DNA of 64,000 bases. Origin: Escherichia phage vB_Ec-M-J. The stretch is taken from the sequence record OQ718158.1, one strand, 5' to 3'. A program made the position numbers and the translations under genes. Positions 4,411-16,629 of this stretch are shown here, in pieces. The first letter of the stretch is position 1. Each line of letters begins with the position of its first letter. A model generated the notes under the pieces. The model searched no databases, had not been told where the DNA came from, and was given only the letters and a program-made list of their open reading frames with translations.

Positions 4411-5505
4411 ATGAGTGATTTTTTTGATTCATTTGTCAGTACTGGGACTAGTATAGTTAATGGTGTTATTGATAATATCAACATCATTAGAGAACCAGCT
4501 TTTGAGAATTATAACGCTGCACAACGTGTGTTTGGTACAGCAGGTGAAATGGGTTTTTCATTCTATAATTTACCAAAATTTAAGAACAGTTTTATTATCG
4601 AATTCGTACTAACCCCGTTCGCAAAGAATTTTATTAAAACTCAACTCCCAGATACACATACTGATTTTGATGTTAATAATGTATCGTGCTTTGTAAAAGA
4701 TGTAACACTTCCTAGTTTTTCTTTTAGTGTTGAAACCGTAAACCAATACAACAAAAAACGTTTAGTTACTGGTGATATTGTTTATAAACCCAGTAATGTT
4801 GTTTTCTATGATACTGTTGATGGTGCTGGATATCTCCTAATGGATGCATATCGTAAGTTCTACTATGGTGACTTCTTTGACAAGAACCCACAATCTTACC
4901 GAAATGACGTACTCAGTACACCAGAAAATTTCAATGGTTTAGGTGGAAACTGGGGTCGTTCTGTAATGAACAATGGTAACTACGACAACCAGTACTTTTT
5001 CAAATCAATTAATATCTATGAAATTGATAATGAAACCTATACAGTTCATAACATGATAAATGTATTCATCGAAGATATACAATTAGAAACTAAATCTATG
5101 GAAAGTGAAGGTGACCCAGCACTATTATCTTTGACTATGCGTTATGAAGCGTGTAACAACTTTGGTCCTGAAGGGTACTTGAGTATTGGTGTCCCTACAA
5201 TGGAAATTGCACAACTCATCACCGATACTGAAGGTCTTGGTGTGAGTGGATTCTTTAAGTACTTTGGTGAACTTGATGACAAAACTAAAGGAATTTCGAC
5301 AGTTGGTAAAATTATCCGAGCAGGAACATCAGTTAGTGATATAATCAGTAGTGCTGGTGATATCCTTCGTGGTGACATTACTCCTGATACCATCCGAAAC
5401 ATAGGTTCCGCAGTGACAAGAGGTGCAAATGCTATTGGTTTAGGAAGCATCGTTTCTTCTGCAAGCTCAAAATTCGGATTAGGTAATATATTAGGAGATT
5501 TTTAA
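4411..5505 (+). CDS. hypothetical protein in the tail module (364 aa) with a Gly/Ser-rich C-terminal tail
   Basis: Strong Shine-Dalgarno (AAGGAGA); 4-nt gap to the next gene. No recognisable catalytic motif. Confidence 0.7.
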   Translation: MSDFFDSFVSTGTSIVNGVIDNINIIREPAFENYNAAQRVFGTAGEMGFSFYNLPKFKNSFIIEFVLTPFAKNFIKTQLPDTHTDFDVNNVSCFVKDVTLPSFSFSVETVNQYNKKRLVTGDIVYKPSNVVFYDTVDGAGYLLMDAYRKFYYGDFFDKNPQSYRNDVLSTPENFNGLGGNWGRSVMNNGNYDNQYFFKSINIYEIDNETYTVHNMINVFIEDIQLETKSMESEGDPALLSLTMRYEACNNFGPEGYLSIGVPTMEIAQLITDTEGLGVSGFFKYFGELDDKTKGISTVGKIIRAGTSVSDIISSAGDILRGDITPDTIRNIGSAVTRGANAIGLGSIVSSASSKFGLGNILGDF

Positions 5506-6522
<1,017 letters not shown>

Positions 6523-6549
6523 CTTAAACGACCTTATGGAGTTATTAAA

Positions 6550-7083
6550 ATGAATAGATTACAACAAATCCTAACGGATAAAAAACCAGTTTTTGAATAC
6601 CGAGTCAAGTTTGCAGTTGAACCTACCAATGAGCAACTAAGTAAAGTATCACAACGCCTAATGGATCGTTATGATGCATTTGATATTGGTGCACTAAAGA
6701 AAACTATTTTCATGGAAAGACCACTAGATTTTTATGAATTAGATTGTGGTGAAATTTGGATGTTTGATTTCAAATGCCACCGTGGTGTTCAATCAAACGT
6801 ACTAATGTATGAAATTGGCAACCTACTAAGTATGACTGAAGCTCTAATCCGTGTACGTAGTAAAGATGAACCACGTCAACAAGAAATGACCGAACTCGAA
6901 GATGATATTGACTTTGACGATTACGAACCAGTAATTGGTGTTGATTTTGGTAAACCAGAAGACAGCCACGATTTAGCTGGTGAAGAACGTGCTGTAACCG
7001 CAGTTAAAGATGCGATTGAAGCAGTAAAAAGTGACAATAAATACTCTCAATATATGAGTGCTGGTTTTGGTAAAAAGGATTGA
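6550..7083 (+). CDS. hypothetical protein
   Basis: 177-aa ORF with GGAG Shine-Dalgarno, tightly packed in the operon. Confidence 0.7.
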   Translation: MNRLQQILTDKKPVFEYRVKFAVEPTNEQLSKVSQRLMDRYDAFDIGALKKTIFMERPLDFYELDCGEIWMFDFKCHRGVQSNVLMYEIGNLLSMTEALIRVRSKDEPRQQEMTELEDDIDFDDYEPVIGVDFGKPEDSHDLAGEERAVTAVKDAIEAVKSDNKYSQYMSAGFGKKD

Positions 7084-10969: not shown

Positions 10970-10997
10970 TTGACAACGCCGAATGATGTGTTATAAT
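10970..10997 (+). promoter_or_regulatory. strong sigma70-type promoter P1 (TTGACA-N16-TGtTATAAT, A-rich upstream)
   Basis: Exact -35 TTGACA at 10970-10975 and exact -10 TATAAT at 10992-10997 with extended TGn; A-tract upstream. Confidence 0.75.
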
Positions 10998-11061: not shown

Positions 11062-11089
11062 TTGACAAGCCTGAACGATGTGATATAAT
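11062..11089 (+). promoter_or_regulatory. strong sigma70-type promoter P2 (TTGACA-N16-TGaTATAAT), tandem copy of P1
   Basis: Exact -35 at 11062-11067 and -10 at 11084-11089. Flanking sequence is nearly identical to P1 (gatgtg.TATAATGACCA). Confidence 0.75.
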
Positions 11090-11260: not shown

Positions 11261-12589
11261 ATGTCTACTCAAAACAACGATATCCTGAACGTAAAACTGA
11301 CTCCTAAGAAAGCTAAAGAAGCAATGGCACTGGCTGACATGATTCAAGATAGCCTGATGATTTGGGGTAGCCCTGGTATCGGTAAATCTGCTATCGCACG
11401 TCAATACGCTGATGAGAACTACCCACTGCGTAAAGATAACGTGGCAAAAATTGAGTTCATGAAACAACAAATCGAAGCTGATACTGAAAATGCTGATCAA
11501 CTTCGCCGTGAACTGGCAGCGTTTGAAGCCAAACTAATCGACCAAGACACTAACTTTATCGATTTCCGTTTGTCTCAGATTGAACCAAGTGACCTTCGCG
11601 GTATCCCAGTTCCAGAGAAAGTGTTCCTTGATATGGATGGTAAGCAACTGATTGAATCTGAACTGGCTAGTGCACAAGATTACATCGCTGAAACAGCAGT
11701 TGTGTGGGCAGCACCTAAAGTACTGAAGCTGTCTCCAGATTGGAAAGGTGTTATTCTGTTTGACGAAATCAACTCTGCAATGCCGATTGTACAGGCAGCG
11801 TCTTATCAGCTAATCCTCGACCGTTGTGTTGGTGAGATGAAGCTACCTAAGACTGCACTGATTCTCGCAGCAGGTAACCGTGAAACTGATGGCGGTGTAA
11901 CGTTCTCTCTAGCTACACCACTGCGTGACCGTATGACCCACATCGAAATGATTCCTTATCATCAAGATTGGATTAACGATTATGCGATTGGTAAGCGTTT
12001 GAACCCAGCAACTGTAGCGTTCATCAACAACACTGGTGCTAAACACTTCAACACCCTTAGCCCACAAGATCCTTCTCACTGTGGTGGTACTTCTCCACGT
12101 TCATGGGAAGCAGTAGCACGCTACGAAGATCTGAAGAAAGTTAAGAACATTGATAAAGAAGTGTTCCGTGCGATGATTGCAGGTCGTGTTGGTGAAGGCG
12201 TAGCAACTGAATACATCGAGTATGTTGATAACGTAGCTAAACTACCAGATACCATGTCCATCCTACAGGGTGAGATTAAAGAGATTGATGCTTCGCTTGA
12301 TATTTCCGCGAACTACTTCATCACTCTGAATCTGGTTTACAAAATTATCGACCTCTACAATGAGAAGCAAGAACAACGTCTACCAGTGGAAGATTGGGGT
12401 AAGCTGTGCAACAACTTCATCACCTTCCTAGACCATAACTTCTCTGCAACTCAAGCAGAACTGGCAGTACTGGCGATTCGTACCATCACGCTTCATAAAG
12501 TAGCGATTACGATTAAAGATGTACCAGCGTTTAAAGACTTCGTTATGAAGTACTCTGACCTAGTACGTAAAGCACGCTCTCTTGGTTAA
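11261..12589 (+). CDS. AAA+ ATPase, MoxR/CobS-like (AAA_5-type)
   Basis: Walker A GSPGIGKS and Walker B ILFDEIN; 442 aa; AAAGGA Shine-Dalgarno; immediately followed by a vWA-domain gene, the typical MoxR/CobS partner. Confidence 0.85.
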   Translation: MSTQNNDILNVKLTPKKAKEAMALADMIQDSLMIWGSPGIGKSAIARQYADENYPLRKDNVAKIEFMKQQIEADTENADQLRRELAAFEAKLIDQDTNFIDFRLSQIEPSDLRGIPVPEKVFLDMDGKQLIESELASAQDYIAETAVVWAAPKVLKLSPDWKGVILFDEINSAMPIVQAASYQLILDRCVGEMKLPKTALILAAGNRETDGGVTFSLATPLRDRMTHIEMIPYHQDWINDYAIGKRLNPATVAFINNTGAKHFNTLSPQDPSHCGGTSPRSWEAVARYEDLKKVKNIDKEVFRAMIAGRVGEGVATEYIEYVDNVAKLPDTMSILQGEIKEIDASLDISANYFITLNLVYKIIDLYNEKQEQRLPVEDWGKLCNNFITFLDHNFSATQAELAVLAIRTITLHKVAITIKDVPAFKDFVMKYSDLVRKARSLG

Positions 12590-12664: not shown

Positions 12665-14074
12665 ATGTCAGATAAACGTTTCAGTGATGTTACTCCGGCT
12701 CTCCAGAAAGAATGTCAAGATCGTCTGATCTTAGCTCGCACATCTTTAATGCTAACATTCCCATTCTTTGGTGTACTGGCTTCTCGTCTGCGTCCAGTTG
12801 CAAACAACACATGGTGTCGTACTTTGGCTGTAGATGGTAAGCATTTATTCTACAACGTAGAATTCATCATGGGTATTCAGGACCAATCCAAAAAGTCAGC
12901 ATACGAAGAAGCAATTCGTGAGAAACATCCTGAAGTAACTGAAGAACAACTTAAAGAAATGACAGAAGGTTTGACCGATGAAAACCTGATTGCAGTTATC
13001 TGTCATGAGATTCTTCACTGTGCATATGACCACTTCTTGCGTCGTGGTATGCGTGACCCGCAGCGTTATAACCGTGCTGCTGACTATGCAATTAACCAGA
13101 TTCTTGTTCGTGATAAAATTGGTAAAATCCAAAGCCAATGGCTGTACGATAAAAAGTACGATGGTATGACTGCTGAAGAGATTTATAACATTCTCGAAGA
13201 AGAAGATAAGCAGGATCAAGACGGAGAAGGTGAAGGAAATCCACAGGCTGGTAGTGGTGAGGGTGAAGGTAAATCACGCGGTACTTTTGGTGATATCAAA
13301 GATGGTAAAGGCAAAGGTACAACAATTGACCAGCATGACGTTCCACAAGAAGGTCAAGAGGGTGGTTCAAGTGAGAAACAAAAACGTGATTATATGGATG
13401 ATTTCAAAACAGCAATGATGAATGCTGCTCGTGCAGGTGGTACTCCTGCTGAAATCGCACGTATGATTAACAACTTCAAAGAACCTAAGATTGACTGGCG
13501 TTCCAAACTTCACCGCACACTGCGTAGCTGGTTGAAGTCTGATGCAACTTATCAAAATCCTAATCGTCGTTCATGGGGTGCTGGTTTTGGTAGTTCTGGT
13601 TCATTCTACGGGAATCCAATCTTCCCTGGTATGAAACCAGATGATGATATTGATATTGCAATTGCACTAGATGCATCCGGTTCTATCTCTGAAGATATGC
13701 TCCGTGATTTCATCAGTGAAGTACTGGGTATCACTAAGCAGTTTAAACAATTTAAAATCCGTATCATGACGTTCGATACTGAAGTTTATACTGTTAAAGA
13801 TTACAAAACTGGTGAAGAGAGTAAGATTCTCGAATATCCAGTGAAAGGTGGTGGTGGTACTGACTTTGAAGCAGTATGGGTTCATATGAAGCATGACAAC
13901 TATAAGCCTAAACAGCTTATTATGTTTACCGATGGTGAGCCGTGGCAGTCATGGGGTGATCCTGATTACTGTAAGACACTGTTTGTTATCCACAGTAATC
14001 CTAACAAACAAGCACCATTTGGCGAAACTGTACACTACGAATATGAAGCTGACAAAAAGCGTCAACGTAGCTAA
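12665..14074 (+). CDS. vWA-domain protein with N-terminal HExxH putative metallopeptidase (DUF2201/CobT-like)
   Basis: HEILH motif in the N-terminal half; C-terminal vWA MIDAS-like residues DASGSIS ... GGGTDF ... FTDGEP; Gly-rich acidic linker; GAGGAA Shine-Dalgarno. Confidence 0.8.
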   Translation: MSDKRFSDVTPALQKECQDRLILARTSLMLTFPFFGVLASRLRPVANNTWCRTLAVDGKHLFYNVEFIMGIQDQSKKSAYEEAIREKHPEVTEEQLKEMTEGLTDENLIAVICHEILHCAYDHFLRRGMRDPQRYNRAADYAINQILVRDKIGKIQSQWLYDKKYDGMTAEEIYNILEEEDKQDQDGEGEGNPQAGSGEGEGKSRGTFGDIKDGKGKGTTIDQHDVPQEGQEGGSSEKQKRDYMDDFKTAMMNAARAGGTPAEIARMINNFKEPKIDWRSKLHRTLRSWLKSDATYQNPNRRSWGAGFGSSGSFYGNPIFPGMKPDDDIDIAIALDASGSISEDMLRDFISEVLGITKQFKQFKIRIMTFDTEVYTVKDYKTGEESKILEYPVKGGGGTDFEAVWVHMKHDNYKPKQLIMFTDGEPWQSWGDPDYCKTLFVIHSNPNKQAPFGETVHYEYEADKKRQRS

Positions 14075-14086
14075 GTACTAAATAAT

Positions 14087-14117
14087 GAGAACGGAAAATT
14101 CCGTTCTCTACTTTTTT
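14087..14117 (+). terminator. rho-independent terminator
   Basis: gagaacgg-aaaatt-ccgttctc perfect hairpin followed by tacttttttc. Confidence 0.75.
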
Positions 14118-14121
14118 CAGC

Positions 14122-14149
14122 GGGACAGCTTGGAAAAAGGTGATATAAT
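14122..14149 (+). promoter_or_regulatory. sigma70-like promoter (GGGACA-N16-TGaTATAAT)
   Basis: Extended -10 TGATATAAT at 14141-14149 with a partial -35 GGGACA; the same architecture occurs at 63587-63628. Confidence 0.5.
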
Positions 14150-14183
14150 TATATTTGTAACAACATACATGGAGAGTATTAAA

Positions 14184-14414
14184 ATGGAACAAGAACCAGA
14201 AAAAATTCAACTAACACTAATCGACCTAATCAACGCTGCTAAAATCATGGAAGCTGCTGTGGCTCGTAATTCATTTAAAGTCGAAGAACTTGTTGATGTT
14301 GCTCCAGTCGTATCTAAGTTTGTTGAGTTTGCTAACTCTGCACTCGAAGATATCAAAGCACAAGAAGAAGCTGATGCTGCACAAGCTGCTGCTGAACAAA
14401 ATAAAGGAGAATAA
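14184..14414 (+). CDS. small hypothetical protein (76 aa, Ala/Glu-rich helical)
   Basis: ATG 14184 has a GGAGAG Shine-Dalgarno and lies downstream of the terminator and promoter; the longer track ORF from 14085 would read through the terminator. Confidence 0.6.
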   Translation: MEQEPEKIQLTLIDLINAAKIMEAAVARNSFKVEELVDVAPVVSKFVEFANSALEDIKAQEEADAAQAAAEQNKGE

Positions 14415-14416
14415 TA

Positions 14417-15070
14417 ATGGCTATTCGTCACGTTGGTGTAGTACGTAATACGGGTTCACGAGTATTTGTGGTATGGCGTTCACTCCCTGATGATCCAGAA
14501 CATTGTCTCATTGTTTATCGCGACTCACTTCCTGAAGCATATGCTCAATCTGTTGCAGATTTAGTAATGAATCAAGGTCAATCGAATGTGGATTTGTGGG
14601 AAGTTATGCATAAGATTGGTCATCTAGACGGTCGCAAAATGCTAGATGTTCTTCATAATCTACAACATTTGCGTCGTGCACGTACTTGTGATATTGATAT
14701 GCATGTTGGTGGAAACAGTAAGATTTCTCTTGATGTTCTAAACAACGCAATCAATGATAATGATGCTAAAAAACATGAAGATGGTAAAGTTAAAGAATAC
14801 AACCCATTCAAGCCACAAGAAGTTGATACTTCTGTTGAAGAAGCTACCATTGTTGAGCAACTACTTAAAGATGCACAACGTTATGAGCAGTTGGCTAAAG
14901 AGCACTTTGAACGTGCTTACAACTTAGAACCATCTCTACGTCCACAAGTTCAAGCAACACCTGGAGCACCTGATAGCAAAACTTTCTATATTGAAATCCC
15001 AGAAGGAATTTCACAAACCAAAGCAATTGAGAAAGTTAAACAGGCATTTGCAGAACGTAAAGCAAAATAA
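14417..15070 (+). CDS. hypothetical protein
   Basis: 217-aa ORF with AAAGGAGA Shine-Dalgarno. Confidence 0.7.
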   Translation: MAIRHVGVVRNTGSRVFVVWRSLPDDPEHCLIVYRDSLPEAYAQSVADLVMNQGQSNVDLWEVMHKIGHLDGRKMLDVLHNLQHLRRARTCDIDMHVGGNSKISLDVLNNAINDNDAKKHEDGKVKEYNPFKPQEVDTSVEEATIVEQLLKDAQRYEQLAKEHFERAYNLEPSLRPQVQATPGAPDSKTFYIEIPEGISQTKAIEKVKQAFAERKAK

Positions 15071-15075
15071 TATAA

Positions 15076-15672
15076 ATGAATAAAATAGAATTAGATGAAG
15101 CAATCAATGGTTTATCTAATGTATGTTTCAGTGGCGGGGCAGCAGGTGCTGACCGCCTTTTTTCTATCTATGCAAAAGACAATGGATTTGAAGTAATAAA
15201 TTTTTCATTCAAGGGTCACCAAAGCAGCGTAGATGAAAATACTATATTAGAAATTCCACCCAATATCCTTTGTGATAGTTCAATATTAAAACAATTAAAC
15301 ATTGCATGTTACTCTTTACGCCGTAAAGTTCCTAAGCCTGGTTCGTATGTATATAACTTACTTGCAAGGAATAGTTACCAGATACTTAATACAAAAAGAG
15401 TATATTGTATTGCAAATATTACATCACCTACGCAAGTTTCAGGTGGAACTGCATGGGCCGTACAGATGTATATGGATTCAGTTGACAATCCAGAAATATA
15501 TTGTTATGATATGAACACTCGCTCTGTATTTTATTATGATACAGTACTGAAAGAGTTTACTGAAACATTCTCAATACCAGCACCACACGGTAACTGGACT
15601 GGGATTGGTTCACGTAATGCTACACAAAAACACATGGAACACTTTATTACATTTTTCAAGGACGTAAAATGA
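15076..15672 (+). CDS. Rossmann-fold protein with a DprA/SLOG-like glycine motif (FSGGAAGAD)
   Basis: 198-aa ORF; N-terminal beta-strand plus SGGAxGxD loop resembling the DprA/YpsA/LOG (SLOG) nucleotide-binding signature. Weak Shine-Dalgarno. Overlaps the thymidylate synthase start by 4 nt. Confidence 0.45.
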   Translation: MNKIELDEAINGLSNVCFSGGAAGADRLFSIYAKDNGFEVINFSFKGHQSSVDENTILEIPPNILCDSSILKQLNIACYSLRRKVPKPGSYVYNLLARNSYQILNTKRVYCIANITSPTQVSGGTAWAVQMYMDSVDNPEIYCYDMNTRSVFYYDTVLKEFTETFSIPAPHGNWTGIGSRNATQKHMEHFITFFKDVK

Positions 15673-16598: not shown

Positions 16599-16605
16599 AA
16601 GAAAA

Positions 16606-16629
16606 GGGAGACTTATGTCTCCCTTTTTT
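16606..16629. terminator. bidirectional rho-independent terminator between convergent genes
   Basis: gggagac-ttat-gtctccc hairpin flanked by an A-run and a T-run. Confidence 0.75.

Follow-up and report, generated by a model that had tools for sequence, protein, structure and literature searches.

We analysed a 64,000-nucleotide (nt) stretch of DNA from Escherichia phage vB_Ec-M-J (OQ718158.1), hereafter the window, which carries on its plus strand a gene for a 198-amino-acid (aa) protein (15076-15672) previously predicted to be a DprA/SLOG-like Rossmann protein translationally coupled to thymidylate synthase (ThyA). The open reading frame (ORF) was confirmed on the window sequence. Reading the sequence also located the motif of the original prediction, VCFSGGAAGADRLF, at residues 16-29 of the SLOG protein, and the overlap of its stop codon with the start of thyA, a gene whose identity is backed by Pfam PF00303. 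This overlap takes the form ATGA (15669-15672), in which the SLOG stop TGA (15670-15672) shares bases with the thyA ATG (15669-15671; GTA AAA TGA / ATG AAA). The source group is that of the Rak2-like jumbo myoviruses. The closest record is Escherichia phage fEgEco12 (99.9% identity across 3 kb); WPEC3 (99.7%), WPEC5, Ecwhy_1, CMSTMSU and others are about 99% identical to the window, and 121Q, PBECO4 and phAPEC6, the last classified as Asteriusvirus, about 83%. Beyond these relatives, tblastn matched the SLOG gene in 85 phage records at 30-100% identity, 104 homologues were found in a 90% cluster database, and an exhaustive profile search returned 2,816 clusters (50% identity), of which 741 reached E ≤1e-30. 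The family is almost entirely viral and occurs in jumbo, T4-like, N4-like and crAss-like phages. Given this wide spread of homologues and the 15 positions that are invariant among 68 diverse members, the SLOG gene is real and not a chance ORF.

An AlphaFold2 model of the protein, built on the 68-sequence alignment, folds the 198 residues into one domain (pLDDT 96.9, pTM 0.92), and no additional Pfam domains were found. The model is a three-layer α/β Rossmannoid whose nearest structural relatives are SLOG proteins, and an order-dependent Foldseek search with it returned a sole match, 3imk (E 1.9e-3, probability 1.0), which we take to be the structure behind the Pfam family cpYpsA (PF12694, 'circularly permutated YpsA SLOG family'). 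Glycine-rich loops are present as well: SGGAxGAD, GGT and GIGSR, all of them located behind predicted strands, show no or almost no variation. SLOG and YpsA-clade definitions were taken from PMC6459960 and PMC9503650. The call of a SLOG-type Rossmann domain was thus borne out by a confident Rossmannoid model, not a non-Rossmann fold, and by its match to 3imk. At the level of sequence models, PHROGs placed the protein in phrog_768, 'DprA-like' (E 4.7e-27). The YAcAr/DUF2493 model (PF10686) reached 19.1 bits against a gathering score of 28.2 (E 0.0012, residues 15-44 only), and sub-threshold matches of this kind recurred in 17 of the 68 aligned members (best E 1.2e-4). cpYpsA (gathering score 26.2 bits) left the window protein unmatched at E up to 1 and matched 0 of the 68 members at E ≤0.01, with weak matches in two distant fusion proteins only. 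The Lysine_decarbox Pfam model did not match the window protein, NCBIfam and PADLOC scans gave nothing for it (ShosA drew weak matches in two distant family members), and sequence searches of the PDB with the single protein or the native-order family profile gave nothing meaningful. The family is covered by no Pfam or NCBIfam model.

The predicted order of elements in this domain differs from that in DprA: here a strand and SGGAAGAD open the domain and a strand, GIGSR and a helix close it, whereas in DprA GSR comes first and SGxAxGxD after. As a permutation control, the 68 members were cut at one shared alignment column and residues 167-196 were moved in front of residues 12-166. In the native order, the Pfam DprA model matched 2 of the 68 members (E ≤0.01), and the family profile found no DprA in the PDB. 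After permutation, 14 of the 68 matched at the same threshold (best E 3.9e-5), and the family profile found Streptococcus pneumoniae DprA (3uqz, E 0.0036) in an alignment that is unbroken across 'vvGSRacs...vivSGlAkGiDtaAH', that is, through GSR, the helix and SGxAxGxD. The window protein itself did not match DprA (PF02481) in its native order and scored 17.4 bits once permuted, below the 29.6 cut-off. Because the permuted alignment to 3uqz runs unbroken, the C-terminal strand-loop-helix can be identified as the displaced first unit of the fold, and the permutation explains why 3imk is the sole collinear structural match. The earlier reading of SGGAAGAD as the glycine loop of strand 1 was therefore wrong: owing to the permutation, the strand-1 loop is the C-terminal GIGSR, and SGGAAGAD corresponds to the second motif of SLOG proteins, which reads SGxAxGxD in DprA and GxD/E in the YpsA clade. 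Together, these data establish the 198-aa protein as a SLOG domain of the DprA/YpsA branch that stands alone and is circularly permuted.

The positions that never vary among the 68 members number 15 (S19, G20, A22, G24, D26, A77, R98, Q102, G123, T125, A128, G176, I177, G178 and R180), and R83, P86, L95, L96, N99, G124 and W127 are among those nearly so. The conserved positions all lie at helix N-termini or in loops following strands, the usual site of the ligand pocket in Rossmannoid proteins; a small three-stranded β insert (residues 141-164) is added to the fold. In a study of Helicobacter pylori DprA bound to single-stranded DNA (ssDNA), the DprA domain was identified by two motifs, G-S/T/A-R and F/L/Y-x-x-R-N/D (PMC3950713). 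In that protein Arg52 gates a small pocket that takes one base, Arg143 and Asn144 hold the inserted base, and the substitutions R52E, K137E and R143E each lower ssDNA affinity more than 170-fold (PMC3950713). Both motifs appear to have counterparts here, one in the displaced GIGSR loop and the other in L95-x-x-R98-N99, whose equivalence to the second DprA motif is suggested by motif pattern and order (Table 1). The G24-A25-D26 triplet, in which G24 and D26 are invariant in 68/68 members, carries the GxD/E signature of the YpsA clade, which is predicted to bind substrate (PMC6459960). By motif order, the G123-G124-T125 loop probably corresponds to SGxxxTA of DprA and GGxGT of LOG. LOG enzymes carry the motif PGGxGTxxE with a catalytic Glu. 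At this site the window protein reads SGGTAWAVQ, and the third residue past T125 is the invariant A128, not Glu. At the motif level, the predicted pocket is of the DprA type and not a LOG-type active site.

Because the DprA pocket residues are invariant or nearly so across the family, we infer that the protein is a non-catalytic binder of a deoxynucleotide unit, with ssDNA as the best-precedented ligand, and we give this reading a probability of roughly 0.38. The opening strand-loop-helix unit (GIGSR and its helix) has moved to the C-terminus with the DprA pocket residues retained. One flipped-out base of ssDNA would be taken up by a pocket to which R180 contributes as the G-S-R gate, R98 and N99 as part of the L-x-x-R-N helix, and SGxAxGxD and GGT as loops. 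The protein would serve the replication and recombination programme of the phage, and its overlap with thyA would reflect co-expression with DNA-precursor synthesis, not common chemistry. Several DNA-related contexts of the family (nuclease, helicase, virion RNA polymerase, WYL/topoisomerase) count in favour of ssDNA. In Cr30 the SLOG gene adjoins the gp46/47 recombination nuclease genes; in another locus a PD-(D/E)XK nuclease lies two genes downstream, and in a third an ORF of similar size takes the same position. Moreover, Iyer et al. proposed that phage copies of DprA/Smf act as extra ssDNA binders (PMC7824862).

A number of points weigh against binding of ssDNA. The family is near-neutral, with a median isoelectric point (pI) of 6.8 (6.4 for the window protein, at a net charge of -1), and the pocket region of DprA is described as positively charged. 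High-affinity binding by DprA requires a two-pocket dimer and ssDNA with a length of about 20-35 nt or more (PMC3950713). The window protein lacks the SAM and C-terminal domains of DprA, and its closest structure, 3imk, is without known function. There is also no obviously vacant mediator role: UvsX, UvsY and UvsW are reported to be conserved in group 2 jumbo phages, which bears on this phage only if the Rak2-like phages belong to group 2. The same report weakens the idea, which we considered, that the protein stands in for a missing UvsY. In a survey of 79 viral loci, in which ORFs were called and which represent 31 lineages at 60% SLOG-protein identity, the dominant neighbours were enzymes of the thymidylate branch: a deoxynucleoside monophosphate (dNMP) kinase in 17 of the 31 lineages, ThyA in the Rak2 clade and a dUTPase once. 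These neighbours, and fusions of the domain to His_Phos_1 and NADAR, are no less consistent with a small-molecule ligand, and a free dNMP could be held just as well as a base of DNA by a pocket for one base.

This last point leads to another reading: the ligand would be a free 5'-phosphorylated deoxynucleotide (dUMP, dTMP or another dNMP), and the protein would belong to the thymidylate branch of deoxynucleoside triphosphate (dNTP) synthesis by the phage, as an N-glycosidase-like enzyme in the manner of LOG/PpnN, as a buffer of the dNMP pool, or as a regulatory or scaffold subunit of ThyA or the dNMP kinase. The neighbourhood survey is its main evidence. The dNMP kinase gene (PF21448) lay within 6 kb of the SLOG gene in 39 of the 79 loci, immediately upstream on the same strand in 29, and the two genes typically share 1 or 4 nt. 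Tail sheath genes followed in frequency (22 loci, 14 lineages), then genes for a PTH2-like hydrolase (20 loci, 9 lineages), a gp15-like sheath stabiliser (15 loci, 9 lineages) and ThyA (14 loci, 2 lineages). The link to thyA that the original prediction drew is thus present here but is not family-wide, the dNMP kinase being the commonest partner. All 14 ThyA loci are Rak2-like, with ThyA at position +1 or +2. A dUTPase lies two genes upstream of the SLOG gene in one further locus, and a dCMP deaminase about 3 kb off in another. In WPEC3 an orthologous dNMP kinase (E 1.7e-51 to the Phosso kinase) directly precedes the tail sheath gene, as it does in phage CBB (PMC5259590). The kinase-SLOG-sheath order of other phages therefore appears here as kinase-sheath and, elsewhere, SLOG-thyA; since the kinase keeps its pre-sheath position, the SLOG gene adjoins a different enzyme of the same pathway. 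We also observed a sub-group of homologues of about 304 aa with a conserved C-terminal extension of about 110 aa that has no Pfam match; in Phosso (4983-5897) and in another locus (6001-6915), the gene for this form stands between the dNMP kinase and tail sheath genes.

Further points in favour of a free nucleotide are the near-neutral charge of the protein, the clustering of its 15 invariant residues in strand-end loops, as in an enzyme or ligand pocket, the fusions to a histidine phosphatase and to NADAR, and a precedent among SLOG proteins, the LOG enzymes, which cleave nucleoside 5'-monophosphates (PMC9503650). However, the conserved motifs are of the DprA type and not of the LOG type, and an invariant Ala replaces the LOG catalytic Glu. 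In addition, a neighbour-joining tree resolved three clades, with ThyA linkage in only one, kinase linkage in a second, large and deep one, and neither in the third, whose neighbours include a PD-(D/E)XK nuclease, a dUTPase and a homing endonuclease. Because each linkage belongs to one clade, each looks like a single retained ancestral arrangement and not a recurrent coupling; it may be inherited synteny of T4-like genomes. The third clade, with neither partner, is a further difficulty, as is the fact that short overlaps are common among adjacent phage genes generally. On balance, we consider a free-nucleotide ligand somewhat unlikely, and ssDNA binding remains the reading that we prefer.

At the locus itself, the SLOG gene is the third of four tightly packed plus-strand genes and appears to be co-transcribed with thyA, the fourth (Table 1). 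Promoters and terminators were called as matches in a consensus scan and are candidate elements. The hairpin at 14087-14108 marks the upstream boundary of the unit; the one behind thyA closes it and faces converging tail-fibre genes. For the first gene of the unit, ATG 14169 is probably the true start, because the PHROG match begins at residue 29 of the listed ORF, whose codons 1-28 are overlapped by the hairpin and the promoter candidate. The second gene, encoding a 217-aa protein without a Pfam or NCBIfam match, is found together with both thyA and the SLOG gene in each of the 14 Rak2-like loci. We considered this protein as a diverged dNMP kinase and rejected the idea, as Pfam, NCBIfam and phmmer gave no match and no P-loop was seen on reading the sequence. 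ThyA was matched end to end by a Pfam profile of 266 positions, so that its 309 aa imply one or more insertions totalling about 45 aa. Within the SLOG gene, 6 nt upstream of the thyA ATG, a Shine-Dalgarno-like AAGGA (15658-15662) could plausibly serve thyA as its ribosome-binding site. From the geometry of the two genes we infer translational coupling of the SLOG gene to thyA, and from the promoter and terminator candidates an operon.

Table 1. Positions of the SLOG gene, its predicted pocket motifs and adjoining features in the window
Feature	Position (nt)	Strand	Evidence and remarks
Terminator-like hairpin (candidate), 9-bp stem and T run	14087-14108		After the VWA/DUF2201 gene; conserved, with changed loop, in 121Q (~83% identity)
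Sigma-70-like promoter candidate, GGGACA-16 nt-TATAAT with upstream TG	14122-14149	+	10/12 consensus matches; hexamers and TG identical in 121Q
Small ORF, phrog_13789	14169-14414 (listed as 14085-14414, 109 aa)	+	Found in 10/14 Rak2-like loci
217-aa protein, phrog_15894	14417-15070	+	PHROG E 2.9e-112; ends 5 nt before the SLOG gene
Stand-alone permuted SLOG protein, 198 aa	15076-15672	+	ORF, phrog_768, alignment, model, Foldseek, permutation test
Motif VCFSGGAAGADRLF, strand then SGxAxGxD loop	15121-15162	+	S19, G20, A22, G24 and D26 invariant; aligns to SGLAKGID of S. pneumoniae DprA
L95-L-A-R98-N99, putative DprA F/L/Y-x-x-R-N/D	15358-15372	+	R98 and Q102 invariant; L95 and N99 at least 90%
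G123-G124-T125 loop, N-terminus of helix 125-135	15442-15450	+	Probable counterpart of DprA SGxxxTA and LOG GGxGT
G176-I-G-S-R180, permuted strand-1 loop, DprA G-S/T/A-R (Arg52 gate)	15601-15615	+	Aligns to VVGSR of 3uqz once permuted
thyA, thymidylate synthase, 309 aa	15669-16598	+	PF00303 E 3.6e-101, phrog_160 E 9.7e-116; full-length
Bidirectional intrinsic-terminator-like hairpin (candidate), 13-bp stem, T runs on both strands	16600-16629		Stem conserved in 121Q and RaK2, loops variable

It is also possible that the SLOG gene and thyA are functionally unlinked, their adjacency and ATGA overlap being accidents of packing in a dense genome. By our ORF calls, the exact ATGA overlap is confined to the window's sub-clade among the Rak2-like loci; the junction is a 1-nt overlap in 121Q and a 2-nt gap in RaK2. 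SLOG gene and thyA are adjacent in 2 of the 14 loci, and in the other 12 an ORF of 87-145 aa sits between them. The restriction of the linkage to one clade, the intervening ORF, the many unrelated contexts of the homologues and thyA's own AAGGA all point this way. Inside the SLOG gene, about 160 nt before thyA, we also noted a promoter-like site (15482-15510, plus strand; TTGACA-17 nt-TATGAT with TG, 11/12) that could be an internal thyA promoter, which would add to this side, or a by-product of the conserved DNPEIYCYD coding sequence. On the other hand, the synteny is kept down to about 50% protein identity in phages of Escherichia, Klebsiella, Cronobacter, Erwinia, Serratia, Yersinia and Pectobacterium, and conserved sequences resembling a promoter and terminators frame the unit. 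We regard the absence of any link as unlikely; it is in any case compatible with, and not opposed to, the binding of ssDNA that we favour.

Some features upstream of this unit deserve mention in their own right. Two perfect (12/12) sigma-70 promoter matches, about 90 nt apart (10970-10997 and 11062-11089, plus strand; TTGACA-16 nt-TATAAT with TG), precede genes for a MoxR-like ATPase (11261-12589) and a DUF2201/VWA metallopeptidase-like protein (12665-14074), which in turn follow tail sheath, tube and neck genes. The pair looks like strong promoters for the host RNA polymerase amid a block of virion genes. The gene at 12665-14074 (plus strand) matches DUF2201_N (E 1.5e-36) and DUF2201/VWA, and the phAPEC6 record notes it as 'N4 gp25-like'. 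Its label 'HNH endonuclease' in WPEC3 and several other records looks like a mis-annotation.

Outside the stand-alone genes, the domain is also found within larger proteins. It is embedded in the virion RNA polymerase of the N4-like Klebsiella phage Pylas (residues ~980-1144 of 3,819) and lies near the C-terminus of a 4,328-aa protein of the crAss-like phage cr109_1; RefSeq names the whole of the latter protein 'DprA-like DNA recombination-mediator protein'. BFVD holds the domain in further giant or helicase-fused viral proteins. In a 2,942-aa protein the SLOG domain is followed by NADAR, and in one fusion it follows a histidine phosphatase (His_Phos_1). Such proteins bear on a counter-defence role, in which the protein would sponge up or cleave immune messengers derived from NAD+ or ADP-ribose, such as isomers of cyclic ADP-ribose. 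A role of this kind was predicted for most viral SLOG domains from their Macro and NADAR fusions (Iyer et al. 2022, PMC9503650). The giant protein with NADAR would agree with it, and the presence of the domain in large virion-associated proteins implies that, at least for the N4-like polymerase, it would be delivered as infection begins. Among the homologues, one is located close to genes for NadM-Nudix and NAMPT, another close to a gene for NAD synthetase. Across the survey, however, genes related to NAD or ADP-ribose occurred near the stand-alone SLOG genes in 0-1 of 79 loci, so that enrichment was not found, and the window protein drew no PADLOC match. The NADAR fusion is itself ambiguous, since ADP-ribosylated DNA bases may be a further substrate of NADAR. 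A role in ADP-ribose signalling thus finds little support specific to this family, and we consider it distinctly improbable.

Cellular copies are few. Scanning 185,579 species genomes with one strict pattern gave at least 27 loci, a lower bound, mostly in Flavobacterium, Myroides and Paenimyroides. In these loci the SLOG gene is followed by a gene for a WYL-WCX regulator, with which it forms a conserved pair, and by a topoisomerase gene; in two loci it is fused to a UPF0227/FSH1 α/β hydrolase. We also observed that a MiaB-like radical-SAM gene and the topoisomerase gene flank the pair. A 309-aa gene downstream in flavobacterial chromosomes has the same length as ThyA and was considered as such; it is the WYL-WCX regulator. 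Neither ThyA nor the dNMP kinase was present in the flavobacterial loci examined. The SLOG gene and its WYL-WCX partner may constitute a small, uncharacterised two-gene system.

The neighbours of the phage genes also allow a more speculative proposal, to which we attach very little probability: a dNMP-directed SLOG module beside the dNMP kinase or thyA might edit or sequester a specific dNMP and so pre-empt immunity triggered by the kinase, or might employ its DprA-type base pocket to tether dNTP-synthesising enzymes to ssDNA at replication forks. We know of no precedent for a SLOG domain in control of the deoxynucleotide pool. Phage T5 Dmp counters the Kongming defence by removing dAMP, phage dNMP kinases being an immune liability with which dNMP-depleting enzymes are co-encoded (10.1101/2024.12.20.629578). 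By pure analogy with Kongming, a counter-defence form of free-dNMP binding is conceivable.

Published proteomics of the related phage phAPEC6 touch on several products of this region. Mass spectrometry of its virions identified thymidylate synthase (3 peptides), the 217-aa protein (gp262c, 1 peptide) and the MoxR-like ATPase (6 peptides) (PMC7247149). The presence of a nucleotide-metabolism enzyme, thymidylate synthase, in phAPEC6 particles is odd. Td and DHFR reportedly occur in T4 baseplates. In the phAPEC6 record (MK817115; 2520-3094 of the retrieved locus), an intact SLOG ORF is annotated as two fragment coding sequences (CDSs), gp261c and gp260c, and similar SLOG fragments of 64-133 aa stand as separate entries in UniProt and BFVD. 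Because the ORF is split, proteomic and comparative analyses that use fragment annotations will miss the SLOG protein. We considered the phAPEC6 data as evidence that the SLOG protein is not packaged and set them aside as uninformative, since the record divides the ORF between two CDSs.

Taken alone, the window gene is an ordinary, already-annotated accessory gene. Its interest lies in the family, which is widespread and strongly constrained at 15 invariant residues. A permuted DprA-type pocket, clade-specific partners (ThyA or dNMP kinase) and occurrence inside very large virion-associated proteins make the protein an inexpensive and well-defined target. Should the ligand prove to be ssDNA, phage replication and recombination would gain an accessory ssDNA-binding protein; should it prove to be a free dNMP, the family would bear on the conflict, only lately recognised, that surrounds phage dNMP kinases. 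Meanwhile, databases spread 'DNA recombination-mediator' as a name for what is a putative role. Public records label these proteins 'DprA-like DNA recombination-mediator protein', 'DUF2493 domain-containing protein' or 'hypothetical protein'. The original prediction had called phage SLOG proteins poorly characterised, but the class was already labelled DprA-like by RefSeq and PHROGs, and Iyer et al. discuss SLOG/DprA proteins of jumbo phages (PMC7824862, PMC9503650). The roles put forward in the original prediction, in nucleotide metabolism linked to dTMP or in the binding of nucleotide signals, may still apply. What was known, then, was the class of fold, the label 'DprA-like' and the occurrence of such genes in jumbo phages. 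As far as we could find, earlier work on this family describes neither the permutation demonstrated here, nor the persistence of the two DprA pocket motifs, nor the clade-specific map of partners.

The protein was compared with several known SLOG families. Relative to the LOG/PpnN phosphoribohydrolases, the Glu of PGGxGTxxE is replaced by A128, and DprA-type motifs are found instead. With YpsA proper and YAcAr/DUF2493, the likeness is a 30-residue sub-threshold match, and YpsA is unpermuted; its role in Firmicutes, in cell division and oxidative stress, has no evident parallel in the phage protein. Reports on phage DUF2493 proteins (ICP1 HelB, KP8) were considered as a functional clue and set aside, because they concern other SLOG families and hold no functional data on this one. 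The permutation is shared with 3imk, from the bacterium Syntrophus, and cpYpsA, but the window protein and the 68 members fail the PF12694 model, and the window protein is 40 residues longer and carries the β insert. DprA/Smf (PF02481) can have an N-terminal SAM domain, a C-terminal winged-helix/Z-alpha domain or both, which the window protein lacks; both pocket motifs of DprA appear to be shared, with the GSR unit placed at the C-terminus in the phage protein.

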